Shown piece after piece: positions 2 to 45,331 of a stretch of 64,000 nucleotides of DNA. The number at the start of each line of letters is the position of its first letter. Position 1 is the first letter of the stretch. Source of the DNA: Candidatus Multivorans sp. (GTDB taxonomy: Bacteria; Acidobacteriota; Thermoanaerobaculia; Multivoradales; Multivoraceae); NCBI GenBank assembly GCA_965224025.1, contig OZ245033.1, positions 320,001 to 384,000 of the forward strand. Reading direction: 5' to 3'. The notes under the pieces are model-generated. The model saw only the letters and a list, made by a program, of their open reading frames with translations, was not told where the DNA came from and did no database searches. The position numbers and the translations under genes are program-made.

Positions 2-424
2 CTGCCTTCCCTCGTCCAGTACGGCGCCGACGCGCAGCGCGACGGCAGTTGGGCCTTCTGCACCCCCGCGATCAGCGCCGGCTACCCGCGCTGGTGGCGA
101 CCCGGCGAAGTGGGCATGCCGCACCGGAACCGGCCGCGGCACGGGCTCGCCGACACCGGTGAGTTCCGCGACGGCCTGGGCAACCGGGTCTACGTCTACG
201 CGGTCGGCAACCCCGAGGTCGGCACGGAGCCCGATCCCTACCGCCTCGCTCACCAGAAGAGCAGCGGCTTCGGCCTGGTAACGATCGACCCGGAGGCGAA
301 GACCTACCGGATCGAGGCGTACCGATTCCTGGCCGCGGCCCGCAGCGGCGATGCGGCCCAGTTCCCGGGCTGGCCGGTTACCCTGCACCAGGACGAGAAC
401 GCGGGCGAGAACCGGATCGGCTGA
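2..424 (+). CDS. Alkaline phosphatase D (PhoD)-like metallophosphoesterase, C-terminal fragment (5' end outside the window)
   Basis: Frame is open from position 2: [29 protein letters not shown]...[12 protein letters not shown]...SGFGLVTID...QFPGWPVT, which resembles C-termini of PhoD-like proteins. Confidence 0.6.
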
Positions 425-477
425 CCGGACTCCGCCCCTATACTCAACCGAAACCAGCGAACCAGGGAGGGCTCACC

Positions 478-1119
478 ATGAAGCTGAGAGCATGCATACT
501 GTTCACCGCCGTCGCCTTGCTGATCCTCGTCGCGCCCGTCTCCGCGCAGGACGGCGACATGAGCTTCTTCATCACCAGCACGGGTCCCGGCGACGGCGCC
601 AACCTCGGCGGCCTGGAGGGCGCGGACATGCACTGCGCGGCGCTCGCCGAAGCGGCCGGCAGTTCGGGCAAGACTTGGCGCGCCTACCTCAGCACCGATG
701 GCGAGGACGGAGTGAACGCCGGCGACCGGATCGGCTCGGGACCGTGGTTCAACGCGAAGGGCGCTGAGATCGCCCGCAACCTGGACGCGCTCCACTACTC
801 GAACGTAGGCCTGACCAAGGAGACACAACTCACCGAGAAGGGCGACATGGTCAAGGGCCGGGGCGAGACTCCCAACGAGCACGACATCCTCACCGGGTCG
901 AAGCTCGACGGCGCCCGCTTCACCGACGGCAACGACCACACCTGCGGCAACTGGACCAGCAACGACGAGGGCAGCGCCCAGGTCGGCCACCACGACCGCA
1001 CCGGCGGCGGCCCCGTCCCGTCGTCATGGAACTCGGCCCACGGTAGTCGCGGCTGCTCGCAGTCCAACCTCCAGGGCACGGGCGGCAACGGCTACTTCTA
1101 CTGCTTCGCGATCGACTAG
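478..1119 (+). CDS. Secreted lectin-like protein (C-type-lectin/endostatin-like fold)
   Basis: Signal peptide (…VSA|Q); FFITS…GANLGGLEGADMHC…WRAYLS, HDILTGS, TCGNWTS, WNSAHGSRGC, FYCFA motifs; AGGGAGG RBS. Confidence 0.7.
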   Translation: MKLRACILFTAVALLILVAPVSAQDGDMSFFITSTGPGDGANLGGLEGADMHCAALAEAAGSSGKTWRAYLSTDGEDGVNAGDRIGSGPWFNAKGAEIARNLDALHYSNVGLTKETQLTEKGDMVKGRGETPNEHDILTGSKLDGARFTDGNDHTCGNWTSNDEGSAQVGHHDRTGGGPVPSSWNSAHGSRGCSQSNLQGTGGNGYFYCFAID

Positions 1120-1130
1120 CGGATCGACCA

Positions 1131-1197
1131 AGGAGATTGCGCGGCAGAAACTGAGTGCGCCGGCGCGAAGCGTCGGCCTCCGGGAGTGCCGCGCCAG
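1131..1197 (+). repeat. Degenerate copy of the dispersed REP-like composite repeat
   Basis: AGGAGATTGCGCGGCAGA…CCGGCGCGAAGCGTCGGCCTCCGGGAG aligns with 44437-44528 and with the reverse complement of 5868-5962; the central GCGGGC..GCCCGC hairpin is missing. Confidence 0.6.
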
Positions 1198-1201
1198 GAC
1201 A

Positions 1202-3520
1202 TTGCACAGCGCAGCAGGCTGCCTGCTCATCATCGGCGGCCTCTTTCTGGCCCAAGCCGCCGAGGCCCGCCAAGAGGCTCAGGCCGCCTCCCCGCCCGCT
1301 TCGCCCGGCACGCCGGCCCAGGTGGACACGCCGGCTGATCTCCCCTTCTCCTTCGACGGTCCACCTCCACCCGTGCCGCCCGCCGTGGTGAACCGGGACG
1401 ACTCGAGCAAGGCCACGGTCCGAGCCGTGCGCCTCGCCACGCCGCTCCGGATCGACGGCCGGCTCGACGAGGTCCTCTACGACACCGTGCCCCCGATCTC
1501 GGACTTCCTTCAGGTCGAACCCCGGCCGGGAGAGCCGGCCACCGACAGGACGGACGTCTGGATCACGTTCGACGAAACCACGGTCTTCGTGTCGCTCCGC
1601 TGCTGGCAGGACCCCGACCGGATCGCCGCCAACGACATGAGGCGGGACTCGTACAGCCGGGACGACTATGTCGATGTCGCTCTCGACACGTTCTTCGACG
1701 GCCGCAACGCCTCCGTCTTCACCATCTACGCCTCGGGCGGCCGCTTCGACGCGCAGATCACCGACGAGCGCCAGATGAACATGGACTGGAATCCCGTCTG
1801 GGATCTCCGAACGGGCAGGTTCGAGGGCGGCTGGACGGCCGAAGCCGCGATCCCGTTCAGATCGCTCCGGTACCGCCCCGGCCGCGCGCAGATCTGGGGC
1901 GTCAACCTGCAGCGCTACACGCAGTGGAAGAACGAGAGTTCGACCCTGAACCGCATCCCGGTCGGACTGGGCTCAATGGGCATCATGCAGATGTCGCTGG
2001 CCGGACCCCTGGTCGGACTGGAAGCGCCGCCGGCCTCGAGGAACCTGGAGATCAAGCCCTATCTGGTCGCCGACATGGTGAGCGACCGCCTGACAACCCC
2101 GGAGATTTCGGACGAGACGGACGCCGACATCGGCGTCGACATCAAGTACGGGCTCAGCCAGAACTTCACGGCCGACTTCACCTACAACACCGACTTCGCC
2201 CAGGTCGAAGCCGACCAGCAGCAGGTCGACCTGACGCGCTTCAGTCTCTTCTTCCCCGAGAAGCGCGACTTCTTCCTCGAGAACCAGGGGACCTTCGGCT
2301 TCGGCGGGGCCGGGGGCGGCGGATTCGGGGGGTCTTTCGACACGCCGTCCCTGTTCTACAGCCGGCGCATCGGCCTGCACGAGGGACGCGTCGTACCCAT
2401 CGAGGCCGGCGCCCGGCTGACCGGACGGACGGGCCGCTACACGCTCGGGATGCTGAACATCCAGTCGGAAGACGAACCGTTGTCCGGTGCAATGGCAACG
2501 AACTTCGGCGTGATGAGACTCAAGCGGGACATCCTGCGCCGGAGCAGCGTCGGCGTCATCTACACGCGACGCTCGATCGACCAGACCGGCGGGGGACGCA
2601 ACGAGGCCTACGGCGTCGACGGGACGTTCGCCTTCTTCGACCACCTCACGTTCAACACCTACTGGGCCGAAACGAGCACGCCCGGGCTCACGGACGACAA
2701 CGCCAGCTATCGCCTGGAGATGGACTACAACGGCGACCGCTACGGAGTCCAACTGGAGCGCTTGCGGGTCGGCAGCCACTTCAATCCCGGCATCGGATTC
2801 GTCCGCCGCCACGACATGCGCCGTTCCTTCGGCGAGTTTCGGTTCAGCCCTCGACCAGCCGACAGCAAGCTGGTGCGCAAGTACTCCTGGACCGGGTCGA
2901 TGGCCTACGTCGAGAACGGCGCCGGCCTGGTCGAGACGCGGGAGGCCGAGGGCGAGTTCGGCATCGAGTTCCACAGCGGGGATGAACTCGAACTGAAGGT
3001 CGTGCGGTCCTACGAGTTTCTCCCGTTTCCTTTCCCCATCGCCTCGGACATCACGCTCGGCGTCGGCGGTTACGAATTCGACTACGTGCAAGCCGAGTTG
3101 CAACTGGGCCAGCAGCGGCGGCTATCGGGCCAGTTCTTCCTCGAGTACGGCGACTTCTACAGCGGCCGCAAGACGTCCTTCGGCTGGGGCTGGGGGCTCG
3201 TGAATCTGACCTCGCAGTTCCTGCTCGAACCCAGCATCTCGTTCAACCGCGTGGAGTTGCCGGAGGGCGACTTCGACGTGGAGCTCATCGACCTGCGCGC
3301 CGTCTACACGGTGACCCCGCGCATGTTCGTGAGCGCGCTGTTTCAGTACGACTCCGAGAGCCGGGGACTGGCGGCGAACGTGCGGCTGCGCTGGGAGTAC
3401 CGGCCCGGCAGCGAGCTGTTCGTCGTCTACAACGAGCAGCGCGACACGCTGACGCAGGGCTTCCCGGGGCTCAACAACAGCGCCCTGATCGTCAAGGTGA
3501 CTCGCCTGTTCCAACTGTAG
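1202..3520 (+). CDS. DUF5916 protein with N-terminal CBM9-like domain and C-terminal beta-barrel
   Basis: Signal peptide, IDGRLDE, WTAEAAIPFRSLRY, NTDFAQVEAD, FSLFFPEKRDFFLE, FYSRRIGL motifs. TTG start is uncertain. Confidence 0.8.
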   Translation: MHSAAGCLLIIGGLFLAQAAEARQEAQAASPPASPGTPAQVDTPADLPFSFDGPPPPVPPAVVNRDDSSKATVRAVRLATPLRIDGRLDEVLYDTVPPISDFLQVEPRPGEPATDRTDVWITFDETTVFVSLRCWQDPDRIAANDMRRDSYSRDDYVDVALDTFFDGRNASVFTIYASGGRFDAQITDERQMNMDWNPVWDLRTGRFEGGWTAEAAIPFRSLRYRPGRAQIWGVNLQRYTQWKNESSTLNRIPVGLGSMGIMQMSLAGPLVGLEAPPASRNLEIKPYLVADMVSDRLTTPEISDETDADIGVDIKYGLSQNFTADFTYNTDFAQVEADQQQVDLTRFSLFFPEKRDFFLENQGTFGFGGAGGGGFGGSFDTPSLFYSRRIGLHEGRVVPIEAGARLTGRTGRYTLGMLNIQSEDEPLSGAMATNFGVMRLKRDILRRSSVGVIYTRRSIDQTGGGRNEAYGVDGTFAFFDHLTFNTYWAETSTPGLTDDNASYRLEMDYNGDRYGVQLERLRVGSHFNPGIGFVRRHDMRRSFGEFRFSPRPADSKLVRKYSWTGSMAYVENGAGLVETREAEGEFGIEFHSGDELELKVVRSYEFLPFPFPIASDITLGVGGYEFDYVQAELQLGQQRRLSGQFFLEYGDFYSGRKTSFGWGWGLVNLTSQFLLEPSISFNRVELPEGDFDVELIDLRAVYTVTPRMFVSALFQYDSESRGLAANVRLRWEYRPGSELFVVYNEQRDTLTQGFPGLNNSALIVKVTRLFQL

Positions 3521-5122
3521 CTACTGCGACATCAGCACCGTCAGCCGATGAGGTTCCACCGGCGACGGATGGTGCATCAGCACGTCCTGCTTGCCGTCCC
3601 GGTTCAGATCAGCCAGCCAGGTGTACTCCTCGTCCTCGGGGACCGGGATCATGATCCGCTGAGGCTTCTTCGCGAACACGTCCGGCCCTGGTACGCCGAG
3701 GTGGACGTCGAGCCTCTTGCGGTTTCGGGCCACGAGCACGTCGGAGCGACCGTCCCCGTTCAGGTCCCCCAGCCGGACGGCCGGCCAGAAGGCCCTCTCC
3801 CCGGTCTTCCTGGGCGTCCTGGGCCTGATCTCGCGTACCGCGTTCGGGCGGTCGCCGTAGCGGCCGTCCTCCATGCGGAAGAACTCGAGGTCGAACGACC
3901 CGGCACCCGTCAGAATCGACATGACGAGCACCCGGATGGCAGAGAAGACCGTCGGCTCGAAAGCGGTCACCACCACGTCGACGTGGCCGTCCCGGTCGAA
4001 GTCATGTCGATCGATTCCCGAGATGATGCCCTCGGACTCGACCGCGGCGCCCGGCTCGCGTGAGAACTCCACACTTCCACCGGGGCCGGGGGCGCCGAAG
4101 TACAGCTCGTACGAGGAGTGCATTTTCCACAGGCTCGAGCCCTTGAGCGAGAACACGACGAGGTCGGTCACACCGTCGCCGTTCATGTCGGTCAGGGAGT
4201 GCAGCACTCTGCCCGTGCTTTCTCCCTCGGGCATGTGGTCCATGCGCCGACTGCGGATTCCCCCCGGCGCGGCGAGCGAGGCGATCTGGTCGGAGTCGAA
4301 GGGAATCGCGGTCGTGAACGTCGTGCTGGCCTTCGCGGGGAACAGACCGCCCTCGTCCTGTAGATGGACCGCGAAGTGGTCCTGGTTCCAGAACACGAGA
4401 TCGGTCCGCCCGTCCAGGTCGTAGTCCATGTCGTGAACACGGCCACCCTCTTCCCAGGGCCGGTAGCGGTAGCCGTCGGCGCCGTAGACCCGGTCGAGCC
4501 CGGTTGTTGGCCCTACCGTCACCGGATCGGCGAACCGCCCGCCCGGCATCTGGACCAGCACCTGGAAGCCGTGGCCCTGCACCAGCACGAGGTCGTCGCG
4601 GCCGTCTCCGTTCACGTCGCGTGTCATGTCTATGTGGAGAACTTCGCCCCTCTCGGACGCCCTGAAGTCGGACTTCACCGCAACCAGATCCCGTTCCGTA
4701 GCCGACTCCGGATCGAACCAGGTCAACCGGCCGCCTCCGTAGGCGATCAACCGGTCCCGGCCATCGATGCCCGCAACGTCGACCAAGGACACTTCCGGGC
4801 GCAGCGTGGCTTCGGTTGCCGTCGACCAGTTGCCCTCGGCAAACGAGAGAACGCGCAGGCGGCGGTATCCGTCACCGTCCAGGTGCACGGCGGCGAGGTC
4901 CGCGACCGACCGGCCCGTCAGGAACCCCGTCAGAACGGTCACGCGTTCCGCGACGCCCACGACGACCTCGTGGCGGGTGGGTGCGAACGCCGCGGGTGGC
5001 TCGGAACTCGCGTGGACGGCAACCGGCATCATGCACCCTGACAGGCACACCCGAACCGCCAGCAGGCTGATCCGGGTCGGCCGGTACCGGCTCCCGTCGC
5101 GGACTGTCGATCGTCTCTTCAT
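3521..5122 (-). CDS. FG-GAP/VCBS repeat protein, paralog 1, putative lipoprotein
   Basis: Repeated D-x-[N/D]-x-D-G-x-x-D motifs (DVNGDGRDD, DMNGDGVTD, DLNGDGRSD, DLNRDGKQD); LSGC lipobox-like motif; AAGGAG RBS. Confidence 0.8.
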   Translation of the reverse strand: MKRRSTVRDGSRYRPTRISLLAVRVCLSGCMMPVAVHASSEPPAAFAPTRHEVVVGVAERVTVLTGFLTGRSVADLAAVHLDGDGYRRLRVLSFAEGNWSTATEATLRPEVSLVDVAGIDGRDRLIAYGGGRLTWFDPESATERDLVAVKSDFRASERGEVLHIDMTRDVNGDGRDDLVLVQGHGFQVLVQMPGGRFADPVTVGPTTGLDRVYGADGYRYRPWEEGGRVHDMDYDLDGRTDLVFWNQDHFAVHLQDEGGLFPAKASTTFTTAIPFDSDQIASLAAPGGIRSRRMDHMPEGESTGRVLHSLTDMNGDGVTDLVVFSLKGSSLWKMHSSYELYFGAPGPGGSVEFSREPGAAVESEGIISGIDRHDFDRDGHVDVVVTAFEPTVFSAIRVLVMSILTGAGSFDLEFFRMEDGRYGDRPNAVREIRPRTPRKTGERAFWPAVRLGDLNGDGRSDVLVARNRKRLDVHLGVPGPDVFAKKPQRIMIPVPEDEEYTWLADLNRDGKQDVLMHHPSPVEPHRLTVLMSQ

Positions 5123-5144
5123 CGTGGTTCTCCTTGCCTTCGGG

Positions 5145-5191
5145 GCATGTTGACCACGTCAACATGCAGCCTCTTGTTGACGTTGTCAACA
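5145..5191. promoter_or_regulatory. Tandem palindromic operators TGTTGAC-N3-GTCAACA over a minus-strand promoter
   Basis: GCATGTTGAC-CAC-GTCAACATGC (5145-5167) and TGTTGAC-GTT-GTCAACA (5175-5191), cores 27 bp apart. Minus-strand TTGACA (5189-5184), 17 nt, CATGTT. Confidence 0.8.
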
Positions 5192-5256
5192 CCGAATCGT
5201 CCCGCCGCGAGAAACCGAGCACCAGCGGTCGCGATCCGCTCTTGCCATAATCGGCC

Positions 5257-5871
5257 ATGGCCGAACGGGCTCGCACCTACCACCATGGAGACCTTCGGGC
5301 CTCGCTCGTCGAGGTTGCCGCCGCGATGATCTCGGAGGGCGGCGCCGCGAGCGTGACGATGAGGGCGATAGGCAGCCGCCTCGGCGTATCGCGGGGCGCG
5401 CCCTACCGCCACTTCCCCGACAAGACGGCGCTCCTGGTCGCGGTCGCGGTCGAGGGGTTCAAACGTCTCAACCGCCGTCTGGGGGCCAGCGACACCGGTG
5501 TCTCTGCATCGAGTGTCGAGCGACTCCGACACATGGGCGAGCAGTACGTGCGCTTCGCCCTGGAGCATCCGGCCCACTATCGCCTGATGTACGGCAAGGA
5601 GGCCCTTGAGCGCCAGGATCAACCGGAACTGAGAAAGGCCGCCGGCGCCCTGCTCGAGAACCTGGTCGATGTGATCCGGGTCCACCAGCAGCGCGGCGAG
5701 ATCGAGGGAGGGGATCCGCGGGCGCAGGCCTACGTCGCATGGAGCGCCGTCCACGGTCTGGCTTCCCTGCTGATCGAGAGGCAGATCGACCCGAATGTCG
5801 ACGTGGATGAGCTGATCAGGCAAACCACCGAAACCCTCCTGGACGGCATGCGAGATCACAGCCCGGTCTAG
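5257..5871 (+). CDS. TetR/AcrR family transcriptional regulator (WHG-type C-terminal domain)
   Basis: YHHGDLRASL, HTH MRAIGSRLGVSRGAPYRHFPDK, AWSAVHGLA. Confidence 0.92.
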   Translation: MAERARTYHHGDLRASLVEVAAAMISEGGAASVTMRAIGSRLGVSRGAPYRHFPDKTALLVAVAVEGFKRLNRRLGASDTGVSASSVERLRHMGEQYVRFALEHPAHYRLMYGKEALERQDQPELRKAAGALLENLVDVIRVHQQRGEIEGGDPRAQAYVAWSAVHGLASLLIERQIDPNVDVDELIRQTTETLLDGMRDHSPV

Positions 5872-5962
5872 CGCGGCAGAACTACCGGAGACCGGCGCTT
5901 GGCGCCGGATGCGGGCCAGAAGGCCCGCGCACCCAGTCTCTGCCGCGCAGTCTCCTAGCGCC
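5868..5962 (-). repeat. Complete REP-like composite repeat, uninterrupted copy
   Basis: CCGGCGCTTGGCGCCGG and GCGGGCCAGAAGGCCCGCGCACCCAG hairpins inside GCGCGGCAGA/TCTGCCGCGC inverted repeats. The reverse complement aligns with 44437-44528. Confidence 0.8.
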
Positions 5963-5964
5963 GC

Positions 5965-7605
5965 TCACCGGGCGATCGGCATCGTCACCCGATGGGGCTC
6001 CGTCGTGGACACATGATGCATGAGGATGTCCTGCTTGCCGTCTCTGTTGAGGTCCACCAGCCAGGTGTACTCCTCGTCGTTGGGGATGGCGACCGACACT
6101 CTTTGAGGCTGCCGGGCGAACAGGTCCGGTCCCGAGACACCGGCGAAGACGAGCAGTTGCCTGTGGGTCTCCTCGATCAGCAGGTCCGGGCGACCGTCGC
6201 CCGTCACGTCCCCGATCAGCAAGGTCGTGTTGAACGCGCGCAGGTGACGCTTCTGTGTCTTCCGCTCCTCGTGCGTGGCCCCTCGAAGCACGATGTCCAG
6301 CGGCACCCACCCGAACTCCCTGACGCTGGGGTGGCCATCCAATTGCATTCTGCGGATGGCGTCGGGTTTGTCGGAATGGACGCCTGCTGTCATGGCATGG
6401 AACTCGAGATCCAACCAGACGTCATCGCCCATGAAGCCCTTGAGTCTCTTCCAGAGACTGCTCTCGAGGTAAGCGACCTCGATCGTCGTGAACATCAAGT
6501 CGAGGTCGCCGTCGCCATCGAAGTCGTGCCGGTTCATTCCGAGTTGAATCCTGCCGTCCGACCGGAAGGCGAAGTCGACGCTCCTCGTGAACAGGGTTCC
6601 GCCATCGGGTGCTGGCGCGCCGAGATGCACCTCGTAGGTTGAACGCTTGCGCGAGATGCTCTGGCCTTCCAGCGAGAAGACCACGAGATCACCGACACCG
6701 TCGCCGTTCATATCGGCCAGCGAGTGAAGCACCCTCCCCGTCATGCCTCCCGTGGCGAGCGAGGAAAGCTCGTCGGAGTCGAACGTGACATCGGTCGTGA
6801 AGGTCTCGGCCACCGGGGCAAACAGACCATCCTCGTCCTGGAGATGAACCGCGAAGTGGTTCTCGTTCCAGAACACCAGGTCCTCGCGTCCGTCCTGGTC
6901 GTAGTCCATCTCGTGGACACGGCTTTCACCCCAGGGGTTGTACCGGTATCCGTCGGCTCCGTAGATCCTGCTCAAGTCCGGGGACCGGCCGATCTTCACC
7001 GGATCCGCGAACTCGCCGGCGCTCGTCTGGATGAACACCCGGAAGCCATCGACGCCCGGCACGACCAGGTCGTCGCGGCCGTCGCCGTTCACGTCCCGAC
7101 TGATGTCTACATGGGGGATCTCGCCTCCGCGAGGCGGCTTGAAGTTGGCAGTGACCGCGACCAGGGCGTGCTCCGTCTCCGACTCGGGATCGAACCAGTT
7201 CAGGTGACCGGGCTCGTAGGTGACCAGCCGGTCACGTCCTCCGACGTTGGCCACATCGACGAACTGCACGTCGGGACCGAGTGTTGCGTCCGCTCCCGGC
7301 GCCCAGGTGCTGTCTCCCAGCTCGTAGATTCGCAGGCGGCGTTCGTCGCTGTCGTCGACGTCCACCACCGCGAGCTCCGCGCTTGCGCCTCCAAGAAGGA
7401 ATCCCGTCAGGACGGTCTGCCGTTTCGCGGAGCCGGTGACGACTTCGTACTGCGTGAACGTGAATTCCGCGGGCGGCTCGGCAGTGGACTGCGCGGCGGC
7501 AGGCCCGATCCATCCCGACAGGAACACACCAAGAAACAGTAGGGGCGACATGCTTCCTCGATACCGCATCGTGCGGTCGGTTGCCGGAGTGATCACTGTG
7601 TTCAT
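5965..7605 (-). CDS. FG-GAP/VCBS repeat protein, paralog 2, secreted
   Basis: Same DxxxDGxxD repeats and C-terminus (EEYTWLVDLNRDGKQDILMHH); ATGA overlap with the upstream paralog; signal peptide …AAA|Q. Confidence 0.8.
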   Translation of the reverse strand: MNTVITPATDRTMRYRGSMSPLLFLGVFLSGWIGPAAAQSTAEPPAEFTFTQYEVVTGSAKRQTVLTGFLLGGASAELAVVDVDDSDERRLRIYELGDSTWAPGADATLGPDVQFVDVANVGGRDRLVTYEPGHLNWFDPESETEHALVAVTANFKPPRGGEIPHVDISRDVNGDGRDDLVVPGVDGFRVFIQTSAGEFADPVKIGRSPDLSRIYGADGYRYNPWGESRVHEMDYDQDGREDLVFWNENHFAVHLQDEDGLFAPVAETFTTDVTFDSDELSSLATGGMTGRVLHSLADMNGDGVGDLVVFSLEGQSISRKRSTYEVHLGAPAPDGGTLFTRSVDFAFRSDGRIQLGMNRHDFDGDGDLDLMFTTIEVAYLESSLWKRLKGFMGDDVWLDLEFHAMTAGVHSDKPDAIRRMQLDGHPSVREFGWVPLDIVLRGATHEERKTQKRHLRAFNTTLLIGDVTGDGRPDLLIEETHRQLLVFAGVSGPDLFARQPQRVSVAIPNDEEYTWLVDLNRDGKQDILMHHVSTTEPHRVTMPIAR

Positions 7606-9203
7606 CGGGCGACCAGCATCGTCACCCGATGCGGCTCGGTAGTGGACGCGTGGTGCATGAGGATGTCCTGCTTGCCGTCCCTGTTGAGGTCCACCAGCCA
7701 GGTGTACTCCTCGTCGGGCATCGCGACCGGGACCTCCTCAGGCTTCCTGGCGAACAGCTCGGGCCCCGGCACGCCAGGAAAGACGTGCAGCCCCTTCCGA
7801 CCCTTCTGCACGAGCAGGTCCAGGCGGCTGTCGCCGTTCACGTCCCCGATCAGAACCGACGGATGGAAGATGCCCTTCTCCCCTGAAACGCCGGGGGCGC
7901 GGCCCTTGATTCTGCGGGTGGCGCTCGGTTTGTCGGAGTAGATGCCGCCTTCCATGCGGTAGAAGTCGAGACGCATCGGCACGGAACGAGTCAGCAACCC
8001 CTGTCCAATCATGCGGATCGTCTTGAAGACGCCGAACTTCATGGTGGTGTACACCACGTCAACCTGACCGTCGTGGTCGAAGTCGTACCGCCCGATCCCG
8101 TACGGGAGGCCGTCCGACAGAATCGCGGCGCCGGCATCAGGCGCGAACACGGTGCCGCCCTCGGGTGTGGGCTCGCCCGGGTGGACCTCGTACGTGGAGT
8201 GGACGTTCCACATGCTCTTGATCTCCAAGGAGAAGACCACGAGGTCGGCGACGCCGTCGCCGTTCAGGTCGGTCAGCGAATACAGCACCCTCCCCGTCGG
8301 GGCTCCGGTCAGGCCGTCGTCAATACGCCGGTGGCGGACCTCCCGCGGAGCGGCGAGCGAGGCCGGATCGTCCGAGTCGAACGCGACCTCGGTCGTGAAG
8401 GTCGTGCTGGCCTCGGCGGCGAACAGACCCCGCTCGTCCTGGAGATGCACCGCGAAGTGGTCCTGGTTCCAGAACACCAGGTCGCTCCGTCCGTCCAGGT
8501 CGTAGTCCATCTCGTGGACGCGGCCGCCCTCGACCCAGGGCCGGTACCGGTAGCCGTCGACGCCGTAGACTCGGTCCCGCCCGGTCGAGGGGCCGATGGT
8601 CACCGGATCGGCGAACGCGCCGGCACTCAACTGGACCAGCACCTGGAAGCCGTGGCCGTGCGGCACGACCAGGTCGTCGCGGCCGTCTCCGTTCAGGTCG
8701 CGCGTGATGTCCACGTGGAGAACTGCGCCCCGCGGAGGCGGACTGAAGTCGGAGGTCACCGCCGCGAGTTCCCGTTCCGTTCCGGTGTCGGGATCAAACC
8801 AGGTCAGGCGGCCGTCGCCGTAGGCGATCAACCGGTCCCGGCCGTCGATGTCGGCCACGTCGACGAAGGAGATCACGGGACGCAATGTGGTGTCGACTTC
8901 CGGCGCCCAGTCGCCGTCCGTGAACGTGAAGATGCGCAGCCGGCGGTCATCGTTTCCGTCCACATGGACCACGGCGAGGTCCGCGACCGAGCCGCCGGAC
9001 AAGAACCCGGTCAGCACCGTCTGGCGTTCCGCGGCGCCGATAGCGACTTCGTAGCGCTCGAACCCGTACGCCGCGGCCGGCTCGGAACCCGAGTGCATGG
9101 CGGCCGGCATCATGCACCCCGACAGACACACTCGAACAACGAGCATGGCAATCCGGCTCGATGGATGGCCCCTCCGGCGGCGGGTCGTCTGTGGCTTGGT
9201 CAC
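7602..9203 (-). CDS. FG-GAP/VCBS repeat protein, paralog 3, putative lipoprotein
   Basis: Repeats as above. GTG start at 9203 chosen from the AAGGAG RBS (the track start 9272 lies at the operators). N-terminus VRVCLSGCMMP is shared with paralog 1. Confidence 0.8.
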   Translation of the reverse strand: MTKPQTTRRRRGHPSSRIAMLVVRVCLSGCMMPAAMHSGSEPAAAYGFERYEVAIGAAERQTVLTGFLSGGSVADLAVVHVDGNDDRRLRIFTFTDGDWAPEVDTTLRPVISFVDVADIDGRDRLIAYGDGRLTWFDPDTGTERELAAVTSDFSPPPRGAVLHVDITRDLNGDGRDDLVVPHGHGFQVLVQLSAGAFADPVTIGPSTGRDRVYGVDGYRYRPWVEGGRVHEMDYDLDGRSDLVFWNQDHFAVHLQDERGLFAAEASTTFTTEVAFDSDDPASLAAPREVRHRRIDDGLTGAPTGRVLYSLTDLNGDGVADLVVFSLEIKSMWNVHSTYEVHPGEPTPEGGTVFAPDAGAAILSDGLPYGIGRYDFDHDGQVDVVYTTMKFGVFKTIRMIGQGLLTRSVPMRLDFYRMEGGIYSDKPSATRRIKGRAPGVSGEKGIFHPSVLIGDVNGDSRLDLLVQKGRKGLHVFPGVPGPELFARKPEEVPVAMPDEEYTWLVDLNRDGKQDILMHHASTTEPHRVTMLVAR

Positions 9204-9227
9204 GGTGCCTCTCCTTGCTCCAAGTGT

Positions 9228-9271
9228 TGTTGACGGCGTCAACATACACAGCTTTGTTGACATTGTCAACA
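9228..9271 (-). promoter_or_regulatory. Tandem TGTTGAC-N3-GTCAACA operators overlapping a sigma70-type promoter
   Basis: Palindromes at 9228-9244 and 9255-9271, 27 bp apart. Minus-strand TTGACA (9269-9264), 17 nt, TATGTT (9246-9241). Confidence 0.82.
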
Positions 9272-9317
9272 CCCTCGTGTCCCCCGAAAGGCGAGGCCAC
9301 TGTTCCCTGCGACACCT

Positions 9318-10838
9318 CTAGCCGAGACTGGCTGCTCCGTCTTTCCCCAGCAGAGAGTCCCGCACGGCGCGCTTCTGCAGCTTGCCCGTGGCGTTCTTCG
9401 GAATCTCGTCCAGCACGAAGAGTCGTGCCGGAACCTTGAAGCGCGTGACGTAGCTCGCCAGGTGCCGCAGGAGATCCTGCTCGCTCGCCTGGACGTCGCC
9501 GCTGAGCGACACCGCCGCCCAGATGTTCTCGCCGAACCGAGAGTCCGGCACGCCGAAGACCACGGCTTCGGCAACGGCTTCGTGCTTGTAGAGCGCTTCC
9601 TCGATCTCGCGCGGCGAGATGTTCTCGCCGCCCTTGATGATCAGGTCCTTCTTGCGATCGGTCAGGTAGAGGTAGCCGTCCTCGTCGAGATAGCCGATGT
9701 CGCCCGAATGGAGCCAGCCGTCGACCAGCGTCTCTTCAGTGGCCCCCGGATTGCGCCAGTAGCCCGCCATCAGAGTCGGTCCGGAGAGCAGGATCTCGCC
9801 GCGCACGCCGGCGGGCACGTCGGCGCCTTCGTCGTCGACCACCCGAATCGACATGGCGGGCTGCGCGCGGCCGACGGAGCCGGGCCGAAAGGCATCTTCG
9901 TCGTAGTAGGCGGCGCCTGCCCCTCCCGACTCGGTCATGCCGTAGCCGTCCCGCACGCGGCACGAGAACACCTGCTCGAACTCGCGCCGCACCGGGTCAG
10001 GAAGGGGGGCGCCGCCGGTCCACACGCCATCGAGGCTCGATGTGTCGTAGCGGTCCCGTTCGGGGAACTCCAGCATGTAGGTCAGCATCGTGGGGACCAT
10101 GGAGAAACGAACCACCCGCAGGTGCTGAACGGCCTCGAAGACGCCGCGAGTATCCCAATGCACAAGAAGGCCCGCCTGCATGCCCTTGATGAATCCCAGG
10201 TTCATCATCAGAACCCCGAACGAATGCGACAGAGGGAGCACGTGCAGGGTCGGCATGAAGGGCGGCAGGTCGACCATCCTCGGGTGCGGAACGGACACGA
10301 CGCTCTCGTGAGTCAGCATCACGCCCTTCGGCTTGCCGGTGGTGCCGGAGGTGTAGAGGAGAAGCGCGAGATCGTCGCCTGACCGGTCCGTCATCTCCAC
10401 CAGGGGCTCGGCGCCGGCTACCTCCAGAGACAGGTCGATCGCCTCGTTCCCAGCCGGACCGCCGGCGGCGAAGAGCAACTGCAGCTCGGGGCAGGCCCGG
10501 CGGATCAACGGCACGAGTTCGCCGACGGTGATCACTGCACGGGCCCCGGAGTCCCGCAGCATGTGCTCAATCTCCGGGACCGTGAGTTGAGGCCTGAGCG
10601 GGAGGATGACGGCGCCGATCTTCCACACCGCCTGGAATGCCTCGAAGACTTCCGGGCCGTTGGGCATCACCACGGCAACGCGATCACCGGCCAGGACACC
10701 GCGATCCCGCAGCACCCTCGCCAGCCTGCGCGCCCGCGCGTCCAGTTCGACGTTCGAGATCGTCTCGCCCCGCCAATGGAGGATCGGGTATTCGCCGAAC
10801 TGCTCGATGTTGGCGAGGGCCAGATTGGCTGCATTCAA
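9318..10838 (-). CDS. Long-chain fatty-acid/acyl-CoA ligase (ANL superfamily)
   Basis: YTSGTTGKPKG, GYGMTE, GWLHSGD, DRKKDLIIKGGEN, TGKL. TTG start at 10838 follows GGAGG; the track's longer N-terminus is translated repeat DNA. Confidence 0.9.
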   Translation of the reverse strand: MNAANLALANIEQFGEYPILHWRGETISNVELDARARRLARVLRDRGVLAGDRVAVVMPNGPEVFEAFQAVWKIGAVILPLRPQLTVPEIEHMLRDSGARAVITVGELVPLIRRACPELQLLFAAGGPAGNEAIDLSLEVAGAEPLVEMTDRSGDDLALLLYTSGTTGKPKGVMLTHESVVSVPHPRMVDLPPFMPTLHVLPLSHSFGVLMMNLGFIKGMQAGLLVHWDTRGVFEAVQHLRVVRFSMVPTMLTYMLEFPERDRYDTSSLDGVWTGGAPLPDPVRREFEQVFSCRVRDGYGMTESGGAGAAYYDEDAFRPGSVGRAQPAMSIRVVDDEGADVPAGVRGEILLSGPTLMAGYWRNPGATEETLVDGWLHSGDIGYLDEDGYLYLTDRKKDLIIKGGENISPREIEEALYKHEAVAEAVVFGVPDSRFGENIWAAVSLSGDVQASEQDLLRHLASYVTRFKVPARLFVLDEIPKNATGKLQKRAVRDSLLGKDGAASLG

Positions 10839-26531: not shown

Positions 26532-26647
26532 CAGTCTCCTAGCGCCCCGAAACGCCTCGCAAGCTCGGAGTTTCGGCCCGTCCCGTCCTCACCATGACCT
26601 TGCGCCCCAGAACTCGCTTCGCTGCGTTCTGCGGCGCAAGCTCCTAG
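26532..26647. repeat. Intergenic hairpin-rich repeat bounded by CTCCTAG direct repeats
   Basis: CTCCTAG at 26536-26542 and 26641-26647. 26532-26546 is identical to 5948-5962; 26536-26558 nearly matches the reverse complement of 42763-42784. Internal CTTGCGCC…GGCGCAAG stem. Confidence 0.55.
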
Positions 26648-40819: not shown

Positions 40820-42001
40820 ATGCCTAGTCATGGAATCAAGGATCGGGTCGCCATCATTGGCATGGGATGCACCTCCTTCGGAGAGCATTGGGATCAGAGC
40901 ATCGGCGATCTTTCGCTGACAGCGTCGCAGGAAGCGGTCCGCTCGGCGGGGCTCGATCTCGCCGAGATCGACGCCTTCTGGCTCGGCAACGCCGGCACGC
41001 TCGCCTCCGGACTGCTCATCGCCGAGCCGCTCAAGATCCGCTACAAGCCTGTCACCCACGTCGAGAACTTCTGCGCCACCGGCAGCGAAGCGCTGCGCAA
41101 CGCCGCCTACGCGGTCGCCAGCGGCGCCTACGACATCGTCATGGCCCTCGGCGTCGAGAAGCTGAAGGACTCGGGTTACTCAGGACTGTTCGACCTGAAT
41201 CCGACGACCGACGGCACGGAACTCGAGATGACGCCGCCGGCGGCGTTCTCCATGATCGTGCCCGCCTACGCGGAGAAGTACGGCGTCGGCGAAGACACGC
41301 TGAAGGACGTGATGTCCCGAATCGCGCACAAGAATCACGCCAACGGGGCCAAGAACCCCAAGGCCCAGTTCCAGCGTGAGGTGCCGCTGGAGCGGATCAA
41401 ATCCGCTCCCCCCATCGCCGGCAAGCTCGGACTCTTCGACTGCTCGGGAGTGAGCGACGGCGCCGCTGCCGCGATCCTGTGCAGAGCGGAGGACGCCCAC
41501 CGCTACTGCGACGATCCGGTCATCCTCAAGGGAGTCGGATTCGTCGTCGGGCCGGCGGAAGGGGTCAAGAAACCGGACTACGACTTCACCACCTTCCCCG
41601 AAGTCGTGGCGAGCGCCGAGGACGCCTACCGGCAGGCCGGCATCACGGACCCGCGCGAAGAGATCAGCGTAGCGGAGGTGCATGACTGCTTTACACCGAC
41701 CGAGCTGGTGCTGATGGAGGATCTTGGATTCTCCGAACGCGGAAAGGCCTGGCAGGACTGCCTGGACGGCCGCTTCCAGCTCGACGGCCGCCAGCCGGTC
41801 AACCCCGACGGCGGCCTCAAGAGCTTCGGCCATCCCATCGGCGCCAGCGGTCTGCGCATGATGTACGAGATCTGGCTGCAGCTACGCGGTGAGGCAGGTG
41901 TGCGCCAGATCGCCGATGCCCGGATTGGACTGACCCACAACCTCGGCGGCCTCCCCGGCAACTGCGTGAGCTGCGTCTCCGTGGTCGGAAAGGCGGCGTG
42001 A
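40820..42001 (+). CDS. Thiolase family protein (SCP-x/PhlC-like acetyl-CoA acetyltransferase)
   Basis: VENFCATGS, SDGAAA, EVHDCF, NPDGGL, GHPIGASG, HNLGG. Confidence 0.92.
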   Translation: MPSHGIKDRVAIIGMGCTSFGEHWDQSIGDLSLTASQEAVRSAGLDLAEIDAFWLGNAGTLASGLLIAEPLKIRYKPVTHVENFCATGSEALRNAAYAVASGAYDIVMALGVEKLKDSGYSGLFDLNPTTDGTELEMTPPAAFSMIVPAYAEKYGVGEDTLKDVMSRIAHKNHANGAKNPKAQFQREVPLERIKSAPPIAGKLGLFDCSGVSDGAAAAILCRAEDAHRYCDDPVILKGVGFVVGPAEGVKKPDYDFTTFPEVVASAEDAYRQAGITDPREEISVAEVHDCFTPTELVLMEDLGFSERGKAWQDCLDGRFQLDGRQPVNPDGGLKSFGHPIGASGLRMMYEIWLQLRGEAGVRQIADARIGLTHNLGGLPGNCVSCVSVVGKAA

Positions 42002-42034
42002 AGCGATCGGCGTCCACTGTGCTGGAGCCTGCAC

Positions 42035-42043
42035 TGCTATAGT
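42035..42043 (+). promoter_or_regulatory. Candidate extended -10 promoter for the selenoprotein gene
   Basis: TGcTATAGT 30 nt upstream of the ATG, followed by a GAGGAGG RBS. Confidence 0.4.
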
Positions 42044-42073
42044 GGATTCACGATATCTTGAGGAGGATCCGTC

Positions 42074-42757
42074 ATGAACCGCTGGATCAAGATCGCCGCT
42101 TGCGGTGTCGTCGTCGCCGGTGTCCTGGGATGGGGCGGTTTCAAGACCTACCGCTTCCTGCTGGAGAGCGGGCTCATCCGGTTCAACGAGTACGACATTC
42201 GGACCGAGGGCATCCTTCAGGTCGGCGAGCCTGCTCCGGACCTGCCGTTGACTCTGGTCGGCGGCGGCGACGCGCGTCTCTCGGACCTGTGGGCCACCAA
42301 GCCTCTGGTCCTGGTCTTCGGCAGCTACACGTGACCGCCCTTCCGAGCCCGTGTGGCTCGGCTCGAGGAGATGAGGGAAGAGTGGAGTCCGGCCATCGAA
42401 TTCAGCTACGTCTACATCAAGGAGGCCCACCCGGAGGACGAGTGGCAGGCGCCCAGGAACGAAGCGACGAACCTGATCTTCAATCAGCCAAAGACGATGG
42501 TTGACCGCATGGATCTCGCCAGAGAGTTCGTCGAAGCGATGGATGTCAAGACACGGACCCTGGTGGACGACATCGCCAACACGGCCAACGCCTGCTATGC
42601 CGGCTGGCCCGAGCGCATCTACGTGATCGACAAGGGCGGCACGATCGCCTACAAGGGCGGCATGGGGCCCTTCAACTTCGATACGGACGAGCTCGAGGAG
42701 TTCCTCGCGGACAACTACGTCGGGCTGCGCACCGCGAGCGAAGCCACAGCCGGCTAG
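42074..42757 (+). CDS. Iodothyronine deiodinase-like selenoprotein (thioredoxin fold; TGA 42332-42334 read as Sec)
   Basis: The two track ORFs share one frame and join as PLVLVFGSYT-U-PPF…YIKEAHPEDEW…YAGWPERIYVI…YKGGMGPF, matching deiodinase motifs. N-terminal hydrophobic anchor. 227 aa. Confidence 0.9.
42332..42361 (+). promoter_or_regulatory. Sec codon with candidate bacterial SECIS hairpin
   Basis: TGA, 8 nt, CCGAGCC-CGTGT-GGCTCGG: perfect 7-bp stem with GU in the loop. Confidence 0.7.
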
Positions 42758-42873
42758 CCATAGAGGCGTTTCGCGCGCTAGGAGTGTCCGCAGCGTTGTC
42801 GCTGCGCTGTCGCGCAGGGAACAGGCAGCGAGTAGCCAACGTTACAGCGGCGTCGTGGGTTCGTAGAGTTGGC

Positions 42874-43029
42874 CGCGCTGGGCAGCGAGGCCGCGCAGGC
42901 ACTGGTGTGTTGGCGCCCGACTAGGAGTTTGGCCCGGACCGTGATCGGCGCTCTGACGCTGGCGGCGCGGCTTGTGTCGCGACCCCGTATGCAAGATTGA
43001 GCTTTTCGCCGCGGTCTCTGCCCAGCGCG
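42874..43029 (+). ncRNA. Putative bridge RNA in the IS110 left end (bounds approximate)
   Basis: 12-bp perfect closing stem (42874-42885/43018-43029) with nested stems. CTAGGAG (42921-42927) equals the target left flank; ATGCAAG (42989-42995) equals the IS right end. Confidence 0.65.
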
Positions 43030-43062
43030 ACGATTGGATTCCACATCTACGGGAGGCAGGGG

Positions 43063-44382
43063 ATGGCAAAGCGGAAGGCGGAGCGTCTGGAAGTCGTTCA
43101 CCCGGATTGCGCCGGTGTGGACGTAGGCAAGCGCAAGCACTACGTGGCGGTGGCCCCGTCGCGTTTCGAGCGGCCGGTGCGCAATTTCTCGTCGTTCACG
43201 GAGGACCTCGAGGCGATGGCCTCGTGGCTTCAGGAGTGCGGCGTGCGTGAGGTGGCGCTGGAGTCGACGGGGGTGTACTGGATTCCGGTGTTCGAGGTGC
43301 TGGACCGGGCGGGGTTCGAGGTGCATCTGGTGAATCCTCGGGCGACCAAGCAGGTGAGTGGCCGCAAGAGTGACGTTCTGGACTGCCAGTGGATCCGGCA
43401 GTTGATGAGCTACGGGCTCCTGCGCGGTGCGTTTCGCGCGCCGGACGAGTTGTGTCCGCTGCGTTCGTACACGCGGCAGCGCGCCCAGTTGGTCCGCGAC
43501 CGCAGCCGCGCGGTGCAGCACATCCAGAAGGCTCTGGTGCAGATGAACGTGCAGTTGGACAACGTGCTGAGCGACATCATGGGCAAGACCGGCCAGTTGA
43601 TCGTGCGCGCGATCGTCGCCGGCGAGCGCGACGGCGCGGCGCTGGCCCGTCACCGGGACGGTCGCTGCAAGGCTGGTCCGGCTGTGATCGCGGCGAGTTT
43701 GCAAGGCAACTGGCGAGACGAGCACCTGTTCGCTCTGGGCCAGGCGCTGGCCCGCTACGACATGCTGCAAGGCCAGATCGAGATGTGCGAGAAGCGCATC
43801 GACGCCGAGCTCGACGGCCTGGCCCAAGACGGCGTCGAGGACGCGCCGCCGCCCGGTTCGAAGGCGCGCGAGCGCGCCCTGCGGAAGCGGCTGCATCGCA
43901 TGCTCGGCGTGGACCTGGTCGCCATTCCGACGGTCGGCGTCGAAACCGCGCTGACCTTCGCCGCTGAGATCGGCCCGGACCTGTCCCGGTTTCCCTCGCA
44001 GGGCAACTTCTGCTCGTGGCTGTGTCTGGCTCCACCGACCAACATCAGCGGCGACAAACGGCTGAACGGCCCTCCCGTGAAGCAGACCAACCGGGTCGGC
44101 CAGACGCTGCGCCAAGCCGCCACCACAGCCCGCAACAGCAAGACCGCCATCGGAGCCTCTCACCGCCGGCGTCTCCAGCACATGGAGAAGGCGAAGGCCA
44201 TCAAGGCCACCGCTCATCAACTCGGCCGACTGATCTACGCCATGCTGACCCACGGCGAAGAGTACGTCGAGCGCGACCTCGCCGAAATGGAGGCCGTCCG
44301 ACGCGAACGACAAATCAGAAACCTGCAGCGTCAGGCCCGCCGCCTGAATCTGGCTCTCGTGCCGACCGAACATGCCGCCTGA
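43063..44382 (+). CDS. IS110 family DEDD recombinase/transposase
   Basis: GVDVGK, LESTGVYW, RKSDVLD (D-E-D-D); Tnp domain with IPTVG…EIG…F…LAPPTNISG. ATG after GGGAGG. Confidence 0.95.
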   Translation: MAKRKAERLEVVHPDCAGVDVGKRKHYVAVAPSRFERPVRNFSSFTEDLEAMASWLQECGVREVALESTGVYWIPVFEVLDRAGFEVHLVNPRATKQVSGRKSDVLDCQWIRQLMSYGLLRGAFRAPDELCPLRSYTRQRAQLVRDRSRAVQHIQKALVQMNVQLDNVLSDIMGKTGQLIVRAIVAGERDGAALARHRDGRCKAGPAVIAASLQGNWRDEHLFALGQALARYDMLQGQIEMCEKRIDAELDGLAQDGVEDAPPPGSKARERALRKRLHRMLGVDLVAIPTVGVETALTFAAEIGPDLSRFPSQGNFCSWLCLAPPTNISGDKRLNGPPVKQTNRVGQTLRQAATTARNSKTAIGASHRRRLQHMEKAKAIKATAHQLGRLIYAMLTHGEEYVERDLAEMEAVRRERQIRNLQRQARRLNLALVPTEHAA

Positions 44383-44436
44383 ATCGCGCAACCTGCGCTG
44401 CCAACAAGGAACCCCTACCCGTTTGTTCCATGCAAG

Positions 44437-44528
44437 CCTGCGCGGCAAAACGATCTGACTTGGGAACGCGGGCGTCTCGCCCGCATCCGGCGCCAAGCGC
44501 CGGCCTCCCGGGAGTTCTGTCGCCCTAG
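44437..44528 (+). repeat. REP-like composite repeat, right part of the IS110 target
   Basis: CTGCGCGGCA…TGGGAACGCGGGCGTCTCGCCCGCATCCGGCGCCAAGCGCCGG…GTTCTGTCGCCCTAG aligns with the reverse complement of 5868-5950. Confidence 0.8.
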
Positions 44529-45331
44529 CCGGATTGGCCGGCCGGGTTGTTGACCCGATAGGTCAGGCGCGCCGCCGCGCGCCGCGTCAGGATGCGCATC
44601 AGGAAGATGACGGCGCGGTTGCGCCAGCCCGGTACGACCGAGGGGGCGCGACCGAGCCCTCGCAGGCTGGCGTCCACCACCTGCTCGGGGCTCGTCCAAC
44701 CGGTCATCGGCTCGGGCGCCCCCATGCCGGCCTTCTTCTGGTACTCGGTCGGCGTGAATCCCGGCGACAGCACGATGACGTCGATTCCGTGCTCCGAGAG
44801 CTCCGCCCAGAGCGCTTCGCCGAACATCAGGTTGAACGCCTTCGACGCGCCGTAGACGGCCTCGAACGCCACCGGCTGGTAGGCCGCCGTGCTCGACAGG
44901 AAGATCAGCGCGCCGCGACCGCGCTCGACGAGCCGCGGAGCGAGAATCGTCGCCAGCCCGACGGCCGCCCGGTTGTTGACCTCGACGATCTGAAGTTGAA
45001 GCTCGGGATCCTGCTCGACAAAGGGCCCGTAGGTGCCGAAGCCGGCGTTCGACACCAGCATGCCGACCTCGATCCCGAGATCGTCGACGGCCTTGAAGAC
45101 GAGCCGCGGGCCGTCGCGCTCCCCAAGGTCCTGGGGAACGACATGGACCGTCACACCCGAGGCCGAGCGCAATTCCCGCGCCAACTTCTCGAGCCGGTCG
45201 GTGCGCCGTGCGACAAGCACCAGTTCCATGCCCTCATCGGCAAGCCGCCGCGCGTAGGCCTCCCCGATACCGCTGGAGGCGCCCGTAATCAGGGCGGCGC
45301 CGCCGTAGCGTTGCGGGATTCGCGGGCTCAT
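44525..45331 (-). CDS. SDR family oxidoreductase
   Basis: TGASSGIG, LVARR, NAGFG, YGASKA. Confidence 0.92.
   Translation of the reverse strand: MSPRIPQRYGGAALITGASSGIGEAYARRLADEGMELVLVARRTDRLEKLARELRSASGVTVHVVPQDLGERDGPRLVFKAVDDLGIEVGMLVSNAGFGTYGPFVEQDPELQLQIVEVNNRAAVGLATILAPRLVERGRGALIFLSSTAAYQPVAFEAVYGASKAFNLMFGEALWAELSEHGIDVIVLSPGFTPTEYQKKAGMGAPEPMTGWTSPEQVVDASLRGLGRAPSVVPGWRNRAVIFLMRILTRRAAARLTYRVNNPAGQSG

Follow-up and report, generated by a model that had tools for sequence, protein, structure and literature searches.

An IS110-family insertion sequence of Candidatus Multivorans sp. with predicted RNA guide segments matching a host-repeat target

The DNA analysed here, referred to as the window, is a stretch of 64,000 nucleotides (nt) from Candidatus Multivorans sp. 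(Acidobacteriota; assembly GCA_965224025.1, contig OZ245033.1, positions 320,001 to 384,000 of the forward strand). At 42785-44436 on the + strand it carries what reads as an intact insertion sequence of the IS110 family, RNA-guided and probably active. The element is 1652 bp long and consists of a transposase/recombinase gene at 43063-44382 (+) between a non-coding left end of 278 bp and a non-coding right end of 54 bp. The genome contains 14 full-length copies, each of 1652 bp and 99.82-100% identical, with exactly these ends. An earlier note on this DNA, made from the sequence letters, had described an IS110 element with a bridge-RNA guide aimed at a host repeat family. Because the 14 copies diverge exactly outside 42785 and 44436, the boundaries given here are fixed independently of that note, and contig pieces from public sequencing runs end at 42778 and 44436. 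Its statements on the junctions, the internal heptamers and an 11-nt complement all hold, the observation as a whole is confirmed, and its interpretation is supported in substance, with the changes to RNA structure and guide layout set out below.

The gene is preceded by GGGAGG, encodes a protein of 439 amino acids (aa) and is intact in 14/14 copies. Pfam domains PF01548 (1.1e-25) and PF02371 (2.9e-11) were identified, corresponding to an N-terminal DEDD RuvC-like domain and a C-terminal Tnp domain, and the protein scored 270.7 bits against NCBIfam NF033542 'IS110 family RNA-guided transposase' (cut-off 140). Residues D20, E67, D104, D107 and S329-G330 align with the catalytic region of IS621 and are invariant across nine diverse relatives of 51-86% identity. 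IS621 is the sole relative with a solved structure, and the match to it is distant (E = 1.1e-8) and chiefly within the first domain. Homologues are numerous, with at least 7,995 proteins at E <= 1e-30 among 8,000 candidates scored. No ISfinder name was obtained, the best match in a plasmid collection (51.7% identity) being labelled just 'IS110 family transposase', and a protein collection gave homologues without informative names; the nearest named relative found lies on a Pseudomonas sp. GM50 contig (57% identity). Together, the domains, the catalytic residues, the site- and orientation-specific insertion with a 2-nt core and the structured RNA described below place the element in the IS110 family.

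The left-end box (42785-42823, +) opens with TGTCC directly after the flanking CTAGGAG, and contains a hairpin GCAGCG-TTGT-CGCTGC at 42790-42805, which is kept in relatives with changes in both arms (alignment of 21 left ends), and GGAAC at 42818-42822, the inverted partner of GTTCC in the right end. The right-end box (44424-44436, +) consists of TGTTCC, which forms the subterminal inverted repeat, and a 7-base extension ATGCAAG at 44430-44436. The inverted repeat TGTTCC/GGAACA is thus 5-6 bp long, with its arms set 7 and 33 bases in from the right and left ends, and family-wide the right ends show conservation of GTTCC or GTTTC followed by seven bases.

Every copy (14/14) is preceded by CTAGGAG and followed by a degenerate sequence with the consensus NCTGCGCGGCA, and the sequence farther upstream of CTAGGAG is different at each copy. 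At the window copy the left half of the target is CTAGGAG at 42778-42784 (+), the 5' edge of a host repeat, and the right half, also part of the repeat, is CCTGCGCGGCA at 44437-44447 (+), directly after ATGCAAG. The 14 insertions lie between CTAGGAG and NCTGCGC, and since the left flank and the right end have nothing but AG in common, this dinucleotide is the largest possible core. The intact recombinase with an AG core proposed earlier is borne out by these data together with the intact genes and catalytic residues, and mapping of other copies, suggested in the earlier note as a check, returned the same ends and the same CTAGGAG target in all 14. Empty CTAGGAG+NNTGCGC sites are present in the genome, which indicates that the heptamer belongs to the host repeat and not to the element, and the same heptamer heads many empty repeats; the host repeat family is thus the target, as had been claimed. 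In the window the only CTAGGAG/CTCCTAG sites besides those of the element are at 5952, 26536 and 26641, which had been predicted as further targets. The first belongs to an empty copy of the target at 5941-5961 (-), GCGCTAGGAG followed across the junction by ACTGCGCGGCA, whose reverse complement matches the rejoined target at 20/21 positions. The site at 26641-26647 (-), CTAGGAG followed by CTTGCGCCGCAG, is an unoccupied candidate target, and that at 26536-26542 (-), ACTGAAGG, is a weaker candidate since its right half is just partial.

Counting both strands, CTAGGAG occurs 136 times in the genome, whereas base composition predicts 571 occurrences, a four-fold under-representation, and a large share of the existing sites lie in the insertion sequence, in its derivatives resembling miniature inverted-repeat transposable elements (MITEs) or in targeted repeats. 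They comprise 14 left junctions, 14 internal copies, 12 sites before MITE-like left ends and 96 others, of which 26 pair with 42893-42899 of the predicted RNA at 6 or 7 of 7 positions, the distribution of scores being bimodal. In one relative's contig 42757 and 44532 are connected through 27 other letters; its shorter side of 24 letters is too weak for an empty-site call. In contigs of four public runs the repeat to the right of the element (44388-44561) has a summed contig depth of 127 to 10,700 per run, as against 3 to about 400 for most bins of the element body. Contig depth is not a copy number, and the high value right of the element fits a very abundant repeat family.

To obtain a structure for the left end, 21 distinct left ends from the host genome and related genomes were aligned and used to build a consensus fold and a covariance model. 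The model covers 42868-43036 (+) and contains 49 pairs, of which 16 have changed on both sides; 0/500 shuffles reached the observed values, and paired cells amount to 96.6% compared with 35-44% when partners are slid. On the + strand close relatives reach 130-183 bits, compared with 24-28 on the - strand, and G-U pairs likewise favour the + strand. The fold has an outer stem P1 (42871-42885/43018-43032, +) enclosing two loops on the same strand. In the target loop, closed by P2 (42887-42892/42931-42935), a hairpin P3 (42903-42908/42915-42919) stands just before an internal CTAGGAG heptamer, and in the donor loop, closed by P4 (42936-42943/43010-43017), lie P6 (42962-42965/42985-42988) and P7 (42966-42972/42975-42981). 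A further predicted helix, P5 (42946-42951/42956-42961), is invariant and may instead be loop sequence. The compensatory changes support a left end that encodes a two-loop RNA with the target loop first. The stem GGCGCCCGA/TCGGCGCT proposed in the earlier note to stand before this heptamer is unsupported, its 5' half being variable and its 3' half constant in the 21 relatives, and the consensus pairs the P3 positions instead.

Just upstream of the outer stem lies a weak promoter-like candidate, GTTACA and TAGAGT separated by 17 nt (42841-42869, +), which scores 8 of 12 in a custom scan; relatives have an A/T-rich, TATAAA-like box in the same place. A standard promoter/terminator scan gave no promoter, and the custom scan of the joined ends gave no promoter spanning the junction, only the weak internal site. 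The window copy has G at 42863, just 5' of the -10-like TAGAGT, where the 13 other copies and contigs of three runs have A.

Two heptamers within the predicted RNA are identical to sequences at the junctions. The first, CTAGGAG, on the 3' strand of the target loop, with the adjoining T42928 (42921-42928, +), equals the left flank including AG, and T42928 equals the first base of the element. The second, ATGCAAG at 42989-42995 (+), on the 3' strand of the donor loop, equals the last seven bases of the element, again including AG. From base composition 0.015 occurrences of CTAGGAG and 0.007 of ATGCAAG would be expected by chance in the 279-nt left end, and 0.0009 of the 11-mer considered below. 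Copies carry 0-3 substitutions each (n = 14), and the guides are untouched in all of them. Close relatives show the first heptamer in seven forms (CTAGGAG, CCAGGAG, ATGCAAG, ATGAAAG, ATGCGAG, ATGGAAG and ATTGTAG), and it equals the seven bases before its own element at 49/52 sites, the remaining three matching at 6 of 7 positions. The second occurs in five variants and equals the last seven bases of its own element at 49/51 sites. In 11 distant genomic relatives located with the model, the first heptamer was found exactly upstream of the element in 9/11, with one mismatch in the other two, and the second downstream of the gene in 7/11, all four misses having broken or truncated genes.

The same relationship was observed in metagenomic loci of 42-54% identity, in which the RNA lies upstream of the gene in 58/80. 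The first heptamer was present upstream in 31 of the 55 loci with enough flank, compared with 0.9 per permutation when heptamers were borrowed from other loci, and the second was present downstream in 42/48, compared with 0.5. Variation in the two heptamers is thus matched by variation in the left flank and right end across about 90 related elements, in line with the earlier proposal that they are guides with an AG core and with the covariation across homologues that it called for. The last two bases of the heptamer pair were AG/AG in 45, AA/AA in 10 and AG/AT in two of 57 metagenomic relatives. Identity between the base that follows the first heptamer and the first base of the element was seen in 26/30 and in 32/32 elements. 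Loci L118, L123, L129, L131, L133, L137, L141, L149, L159 and L161 form the AA subclade, a natural core change in which the 3' guides end in AA (e.g. TAAAAAA, TTAGGAA) and flanks and right ends do likewise.

The exact 11-nt complement, which the earlier note had reported without assigning it, is read from the sequence comparisons as a second target guide. It is GCCGCGCAGGC at 42890-42900 (+), on the 5' strand of the target loop, and is the exact reverse complement of 44436-44446. In this register C42900 pairs with the core G, and 42893-42899 pair with bases 1-7 of the + strand flank. Counting wobble pairs, 6-7 of the first seven right-flank bases are paired at 11/14 copies. At 40 repeat-targeting sites the mean Watson-Crick fraction was 0.614, compared with 0.333 on average and 0.429 at most over 2000 shuffles, and with 0.25-0.38 in shifted registers. 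In 41 metagenomic relatives 2.34 cognate pairs were found in flank bases 1-4 compared with 1.18 on permutation, and 0/5000 permutations reached 2.34; this test excluded two loci whose right-end match lay over 100 nt away from the gene, any locus with under nine flank bases and any with a guide segment of a length other than 7 nt. Among close relatives the 5' guide discriminates weakly between target types, because these relatives all target similar repeats.

These results are best explained by an active-looking, RNA-guided IS110 element with features as in ISPpu9 of Pseudomonas putida, three guide segments and an AG core, a reading in which we have high confidence. Under it the left end would be transcribed on the + strand to give a two-loop bridge RNA, which the transposase would bind. 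Both 3' guides end in AG, where the DEDD/Ser recombinase would exchange strands. A circular copy of the element, with a junction of GTTCCATGCAAG to TGTCCGCAG, would then be inserted at the 5' edge of the host repeat, with CTAGGAG on its left and NCTGCGC on its right, and the base after the target guide, copying the first base of the element, would act like a handshake position. Such transposition would presumably continue at the present day.

Short, non-autonomous MITE-like elements occur elsewhere in the genome, at C1:908927-909025 and C1:721958-722246, with a left end like that of the insertion sequence (hairpin plus GCGCAGGGAAC), a right end in GTTCCATGCAAG and targets of the form CTAGGAG/NNTGCGC. 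The abundant 'host repeat', CTAGGAG-TCGAGTCGCGGCGTCCGCGCCGCGCTGACGCACAGGGAAC through to GTTCCATGCAAG, is itself of this MITE-like kind, and many of the 49 TTCC[AC]TGNAAG sites in the genome are right ends of the element or of MITE-like elements. In the siblings L031, L032, L050, L053, L055, L056, L080 and L016 (genome C1:909043-909275) a right-end heptamer (ATGCAAG, ATGAAAG, ATGCGAG or ATGGAAG) takes the place of the 3' target guide, and these siblings immediately follow the right end of a different element or MITE, giving tandem stacks. The DNA of the 3' target guide is itself a target at L042:3827-3933, L084:2214-2470 and L017 (genome C1:4134220-4134334), where the internal heptamer runs straight into a right end, or into a whole MITE (of 91 nt in L084), with TTTGGCCCGG coming next; these insertions destroy or truncate the RNA gene. 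A further sibling, L015 (genome C1:2129200-2130600, -), is 85% identical; its 439-aa gene and right end are intact but the RNA region is absent, and the matching left end with the RNA lies 1.2 Mb away at C1:909043-909290. The same foreign end adjoins the two break points, in opposite orientations (GGGGATTATA and TATAATCCCC), which suggests that another mobile element inserted and a rearrangement then separated the halves.

A number of results weigh against the three-guide reading or limit it. Many of the 52 and 51 sites counted for the heptamers are copies of one element, so that the independent evidence is the number of variants together with the metagenomic tests. Within the 21 left ends P2, P5 and P6 lack compensatory changes. 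The minimum-energy single-sequence fold of the whole left end was no better than shuffles (z = 0.53) and is uninformative, so that the structure is a comparative one, and Rfam gave no family for 42000-45200 at E <= 1. Positions 42890-42892 of the 11-nt complement also lie within stem P2. In the 41 metagenomic relatives there was no signal for the 5' guide past flank position 4, indicating that the family reads about four flank bases plus the core G; the longer match in this element may be real or partly owed to the GC-rich repeat. In the siblings aimed at right ends the 5' guide mismatches the right flank at 9/10 sites tested, the exception being L050, where 7 of 8 right-flank positions pair with wobble counted. 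No cognate right flank for these 5' guides was found near the junctions, and 10-mers of sibling 5' guides occur 67 and 163 times in the genome, unlinked to ATGCAAG. The circle junction was not found in contigs, the only data searched, from four public runs. Finally, the analysis yielded three guide segments where four are expected, and an RNA complement to the core and the left end of the element was not detected in the RNA (59 elements) or in the rest of the left end (32 elements), exact 5-6 nt complements being no commoner than with permuted partners in either. A mutual-information scan showed no antiparallel diagonal for a fourth guide, and the 7-9 nt before a CAUUGG motif of the donor loop pair no better than permuted partners (32 elements). 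The conserved left-end hairpin at 42790-42805 is a candidate for left-end recognition.

Three other explanations were considered. An RNA of the IS621 type would make CTAGGAG and ATGCAAG left guides on 5' strands, with the stem GGCGCCCGA/TCGGCGCT and short right guides after them. The heptamers are indeed identical to the top strand left of the core, like IS621 left guides (as described in the texts of PMC11208160 and PMC11208158), and they stand in the same order, target then donor. Each heptamer, however, follows the inner hairpin of its loop and so occupies the 3' strand of the consensus structure, the proposed stem shows no co-variation, and the segment that pairs with the right flank is 5' of CTAGGAG. 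Moreover, the base 3' of CTAGGAG tracks the donor, like the handshake bases beside IS621 right guides, and no complement to the right flank or left end was found downstream of either heptamer. We regard this arrangement as very improbable. It would be just as surprising if the internal heptamers acted as DNA, as copies of the site recognised by protein or by DNA pairing, and the left end were not a guide RNA at all. The RNA of this element is a prediction from sequence, and internal CTAGGAG DNA does serve as an insertion site in the relatives L042, L084 and genome C1:4134229. Against this stand the helices with compensatory changes, in which G-U pairs would become A-C mismatches on the opposite strand, and the strong strand specificity of the covariance model; in addition, the published accounts of ISEc21 and ISEc11 (PMC11187229) and IS621 (PMC11208160) report experimentally that the non-coding RNA is needed and bound.

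A recently dead family, in which the copies are alike only through recent spread and the guides are fossil, is slightly less implausible than either of these, but still unlikely. No circle junction or polymorphic insertion could be demonstrated in the public-run contigs and one sibling of the same genome is split in two, as such a history would allow. On the other side, all 14 copies are intact with at most three substitutions each, catalytic residues and guides are unchanged, and MITE-like derivatives and 26 well-matched empty targets persist. An active-looking element with three guides therefore remains the preferred explanation.

A wider proposal, which we put forward tentatively and consider rather less likely to be right than wrong, is that this element represents a very large clade of IS110 recombinases of about 440 aa, with an upstream RNA whose frame is inverted relative to IS621 and which holds only three guides, with recognition of the left end through its terminal hairpin, and with a target guide repeatedly re-aimed from a host repeat to the right ends of siblings. 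ISPpu9 would be a candidate member by its features. If correct, re-aimed 7-nt guides would explain tandem stacks of insertion-sequence modules and MITEs and the insertions into guide-coding DNA. RNA-guided IS110/IS1111 elements, the AG-core element ISPpu9 and targeting of repetitive extragenic palindromic (REP) sequences are already in print, and no new type of system is revealed here. The element offers a clear natural case in which a bridge or seek RNA is decodable by reading the DNA, and provides a resource of 14 insertion sites, dozens of empty targets and relatives with natural guide swaps. The covariance model and three assigned guide segments can be applied to a large, little-studied branch of bridge recombinases. 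Side observations of interest are the reversed guide order with an upstream RNA, the re-aiming of guides at sibling ends and the missing left-end complement, which raises the question of how the left end is recognised.

Comparison with IS621, as described in the texts of PMC11208160 and PMC11208158, shows a shared DEDD RuvC-like domain and Tnp domain with a serine nucleophile, a shared upstream two-loop RNA with the target loop first, and loops made up of stem, guide, hairpin and guide. In both, the guides include the 2-nt core, a handshake position adjoins one guide and the target is a REP or REP-type repeat. The protein of 439 aa is longer than the 328-residue IS621 chain in the solved structure. 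In IS621 the loop order is stem, left guide pairing with the bottom strand, hairpin, and right guide pairing with the top strand (PMC11208158, PMC11208160), and the right guides have adjoining handshake bases (PMC11208158, PMC13626964). The earlier note's analogy with IS621 does not extend to this layout, since the order in the element is reversed: pairing with the bottom strand falls to the 3' guide of the loop in the element and to the 5' guide in IS621, and the transposase strand reads AG at the core (its complement CT), whereas that of IS621 reads CT. Compared with four nucleotides in IS621, the second target guide reaches 8-11 nt and, unlike in the IS621 layout, a second donor guide was not found. 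By position and by the adjacent handshake-like base, the heptamers would correspond to IS621 right guides, not left guides, on the complementary strand. Judged from this geometry, the layout read on that strand, with CT as core, would equal that of IS621 including the handshake base.

Guide order resembles that of another group. According to the text of Siddiquee et al. 2024 (PMC11187229), ISEc21 has the same guide order as IS621, whereas all tested IS1111-type seekRNAs are reversed, and in those of ISEc11, ISPa11 and ISKpn4 the order of target matches is as in the element, with the top-strand match 5' of the bottom-strand match. IS1111-type elements also share subterminal inverted repeats and a 7-base extension at one end, which in the element is the right end (PMC11187229). 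The element nevertheless lacks two features of the IS1111 group, its RNA region being upstream rather than downstream of the transposase gene and its transposase being 439 aa rather than 330-350 aa (PMC11187229). Its subterminal inverted repeat is 5-6 bp long, and 7-17 bp is given for that group (PMC11208160 / PMC11208158). A length of 439 aa falls in the range of 395-455 aa given for the subgroup that includes IS110 itself (PMC11187229). ISPpu10 (bioRxiv 10.64898/2026.03.19.712850) is, like the element, an IS110 member that targets one REP family, with a target hairpin beside the paired bases, but from the text of that preprint it differs in its core, which is CT, in pairing by the logic of IS621 and in having a strong promoter at the junction.

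Among described elements, ISPpu9 of P. putida KT2440 (IS110 family; PMC12288879) comes closest in its features. In the text of Pares-Guillen et al. 2025 (PMC12288879; figures and supplements aside) the guide segments of ISPpu9 are not assigned, and no guide assignment for ISPpu9-like elements was found in the literature text, figures and supplements being outside this scope. A 2026 preprint (10.64898/2026.10.21.760802) gives guide calls for 32,190 bridge RNAs from 86 models and, given such published calls and supplements, the guides of this clade may have been described before. From the account of ISPpu9 (PMC12288879), both it and the element have an AG dinucleotide at both junctions as the crossover point, insert into a REP-type repeat with a similar palindrome in the right part of the target, and have a left box with a palindrome (the A box of ISPpu9), a short right box and a long structured leader upstream of the transposase gene. 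ISPpu9 is described with a native promoter and not a junction promoter (PMC12288879), and in the element a weak internal candidate alone was found. In ISPpu9, non-autonomous modules with look-alike ends lie directly after the right end (PMC12288879), which compares with the MITE-like elements and tandem right-end/left-end junctions seen here. Target guides aimed at the right ends of siblings suggest a possible explanation for this modular arrangement.

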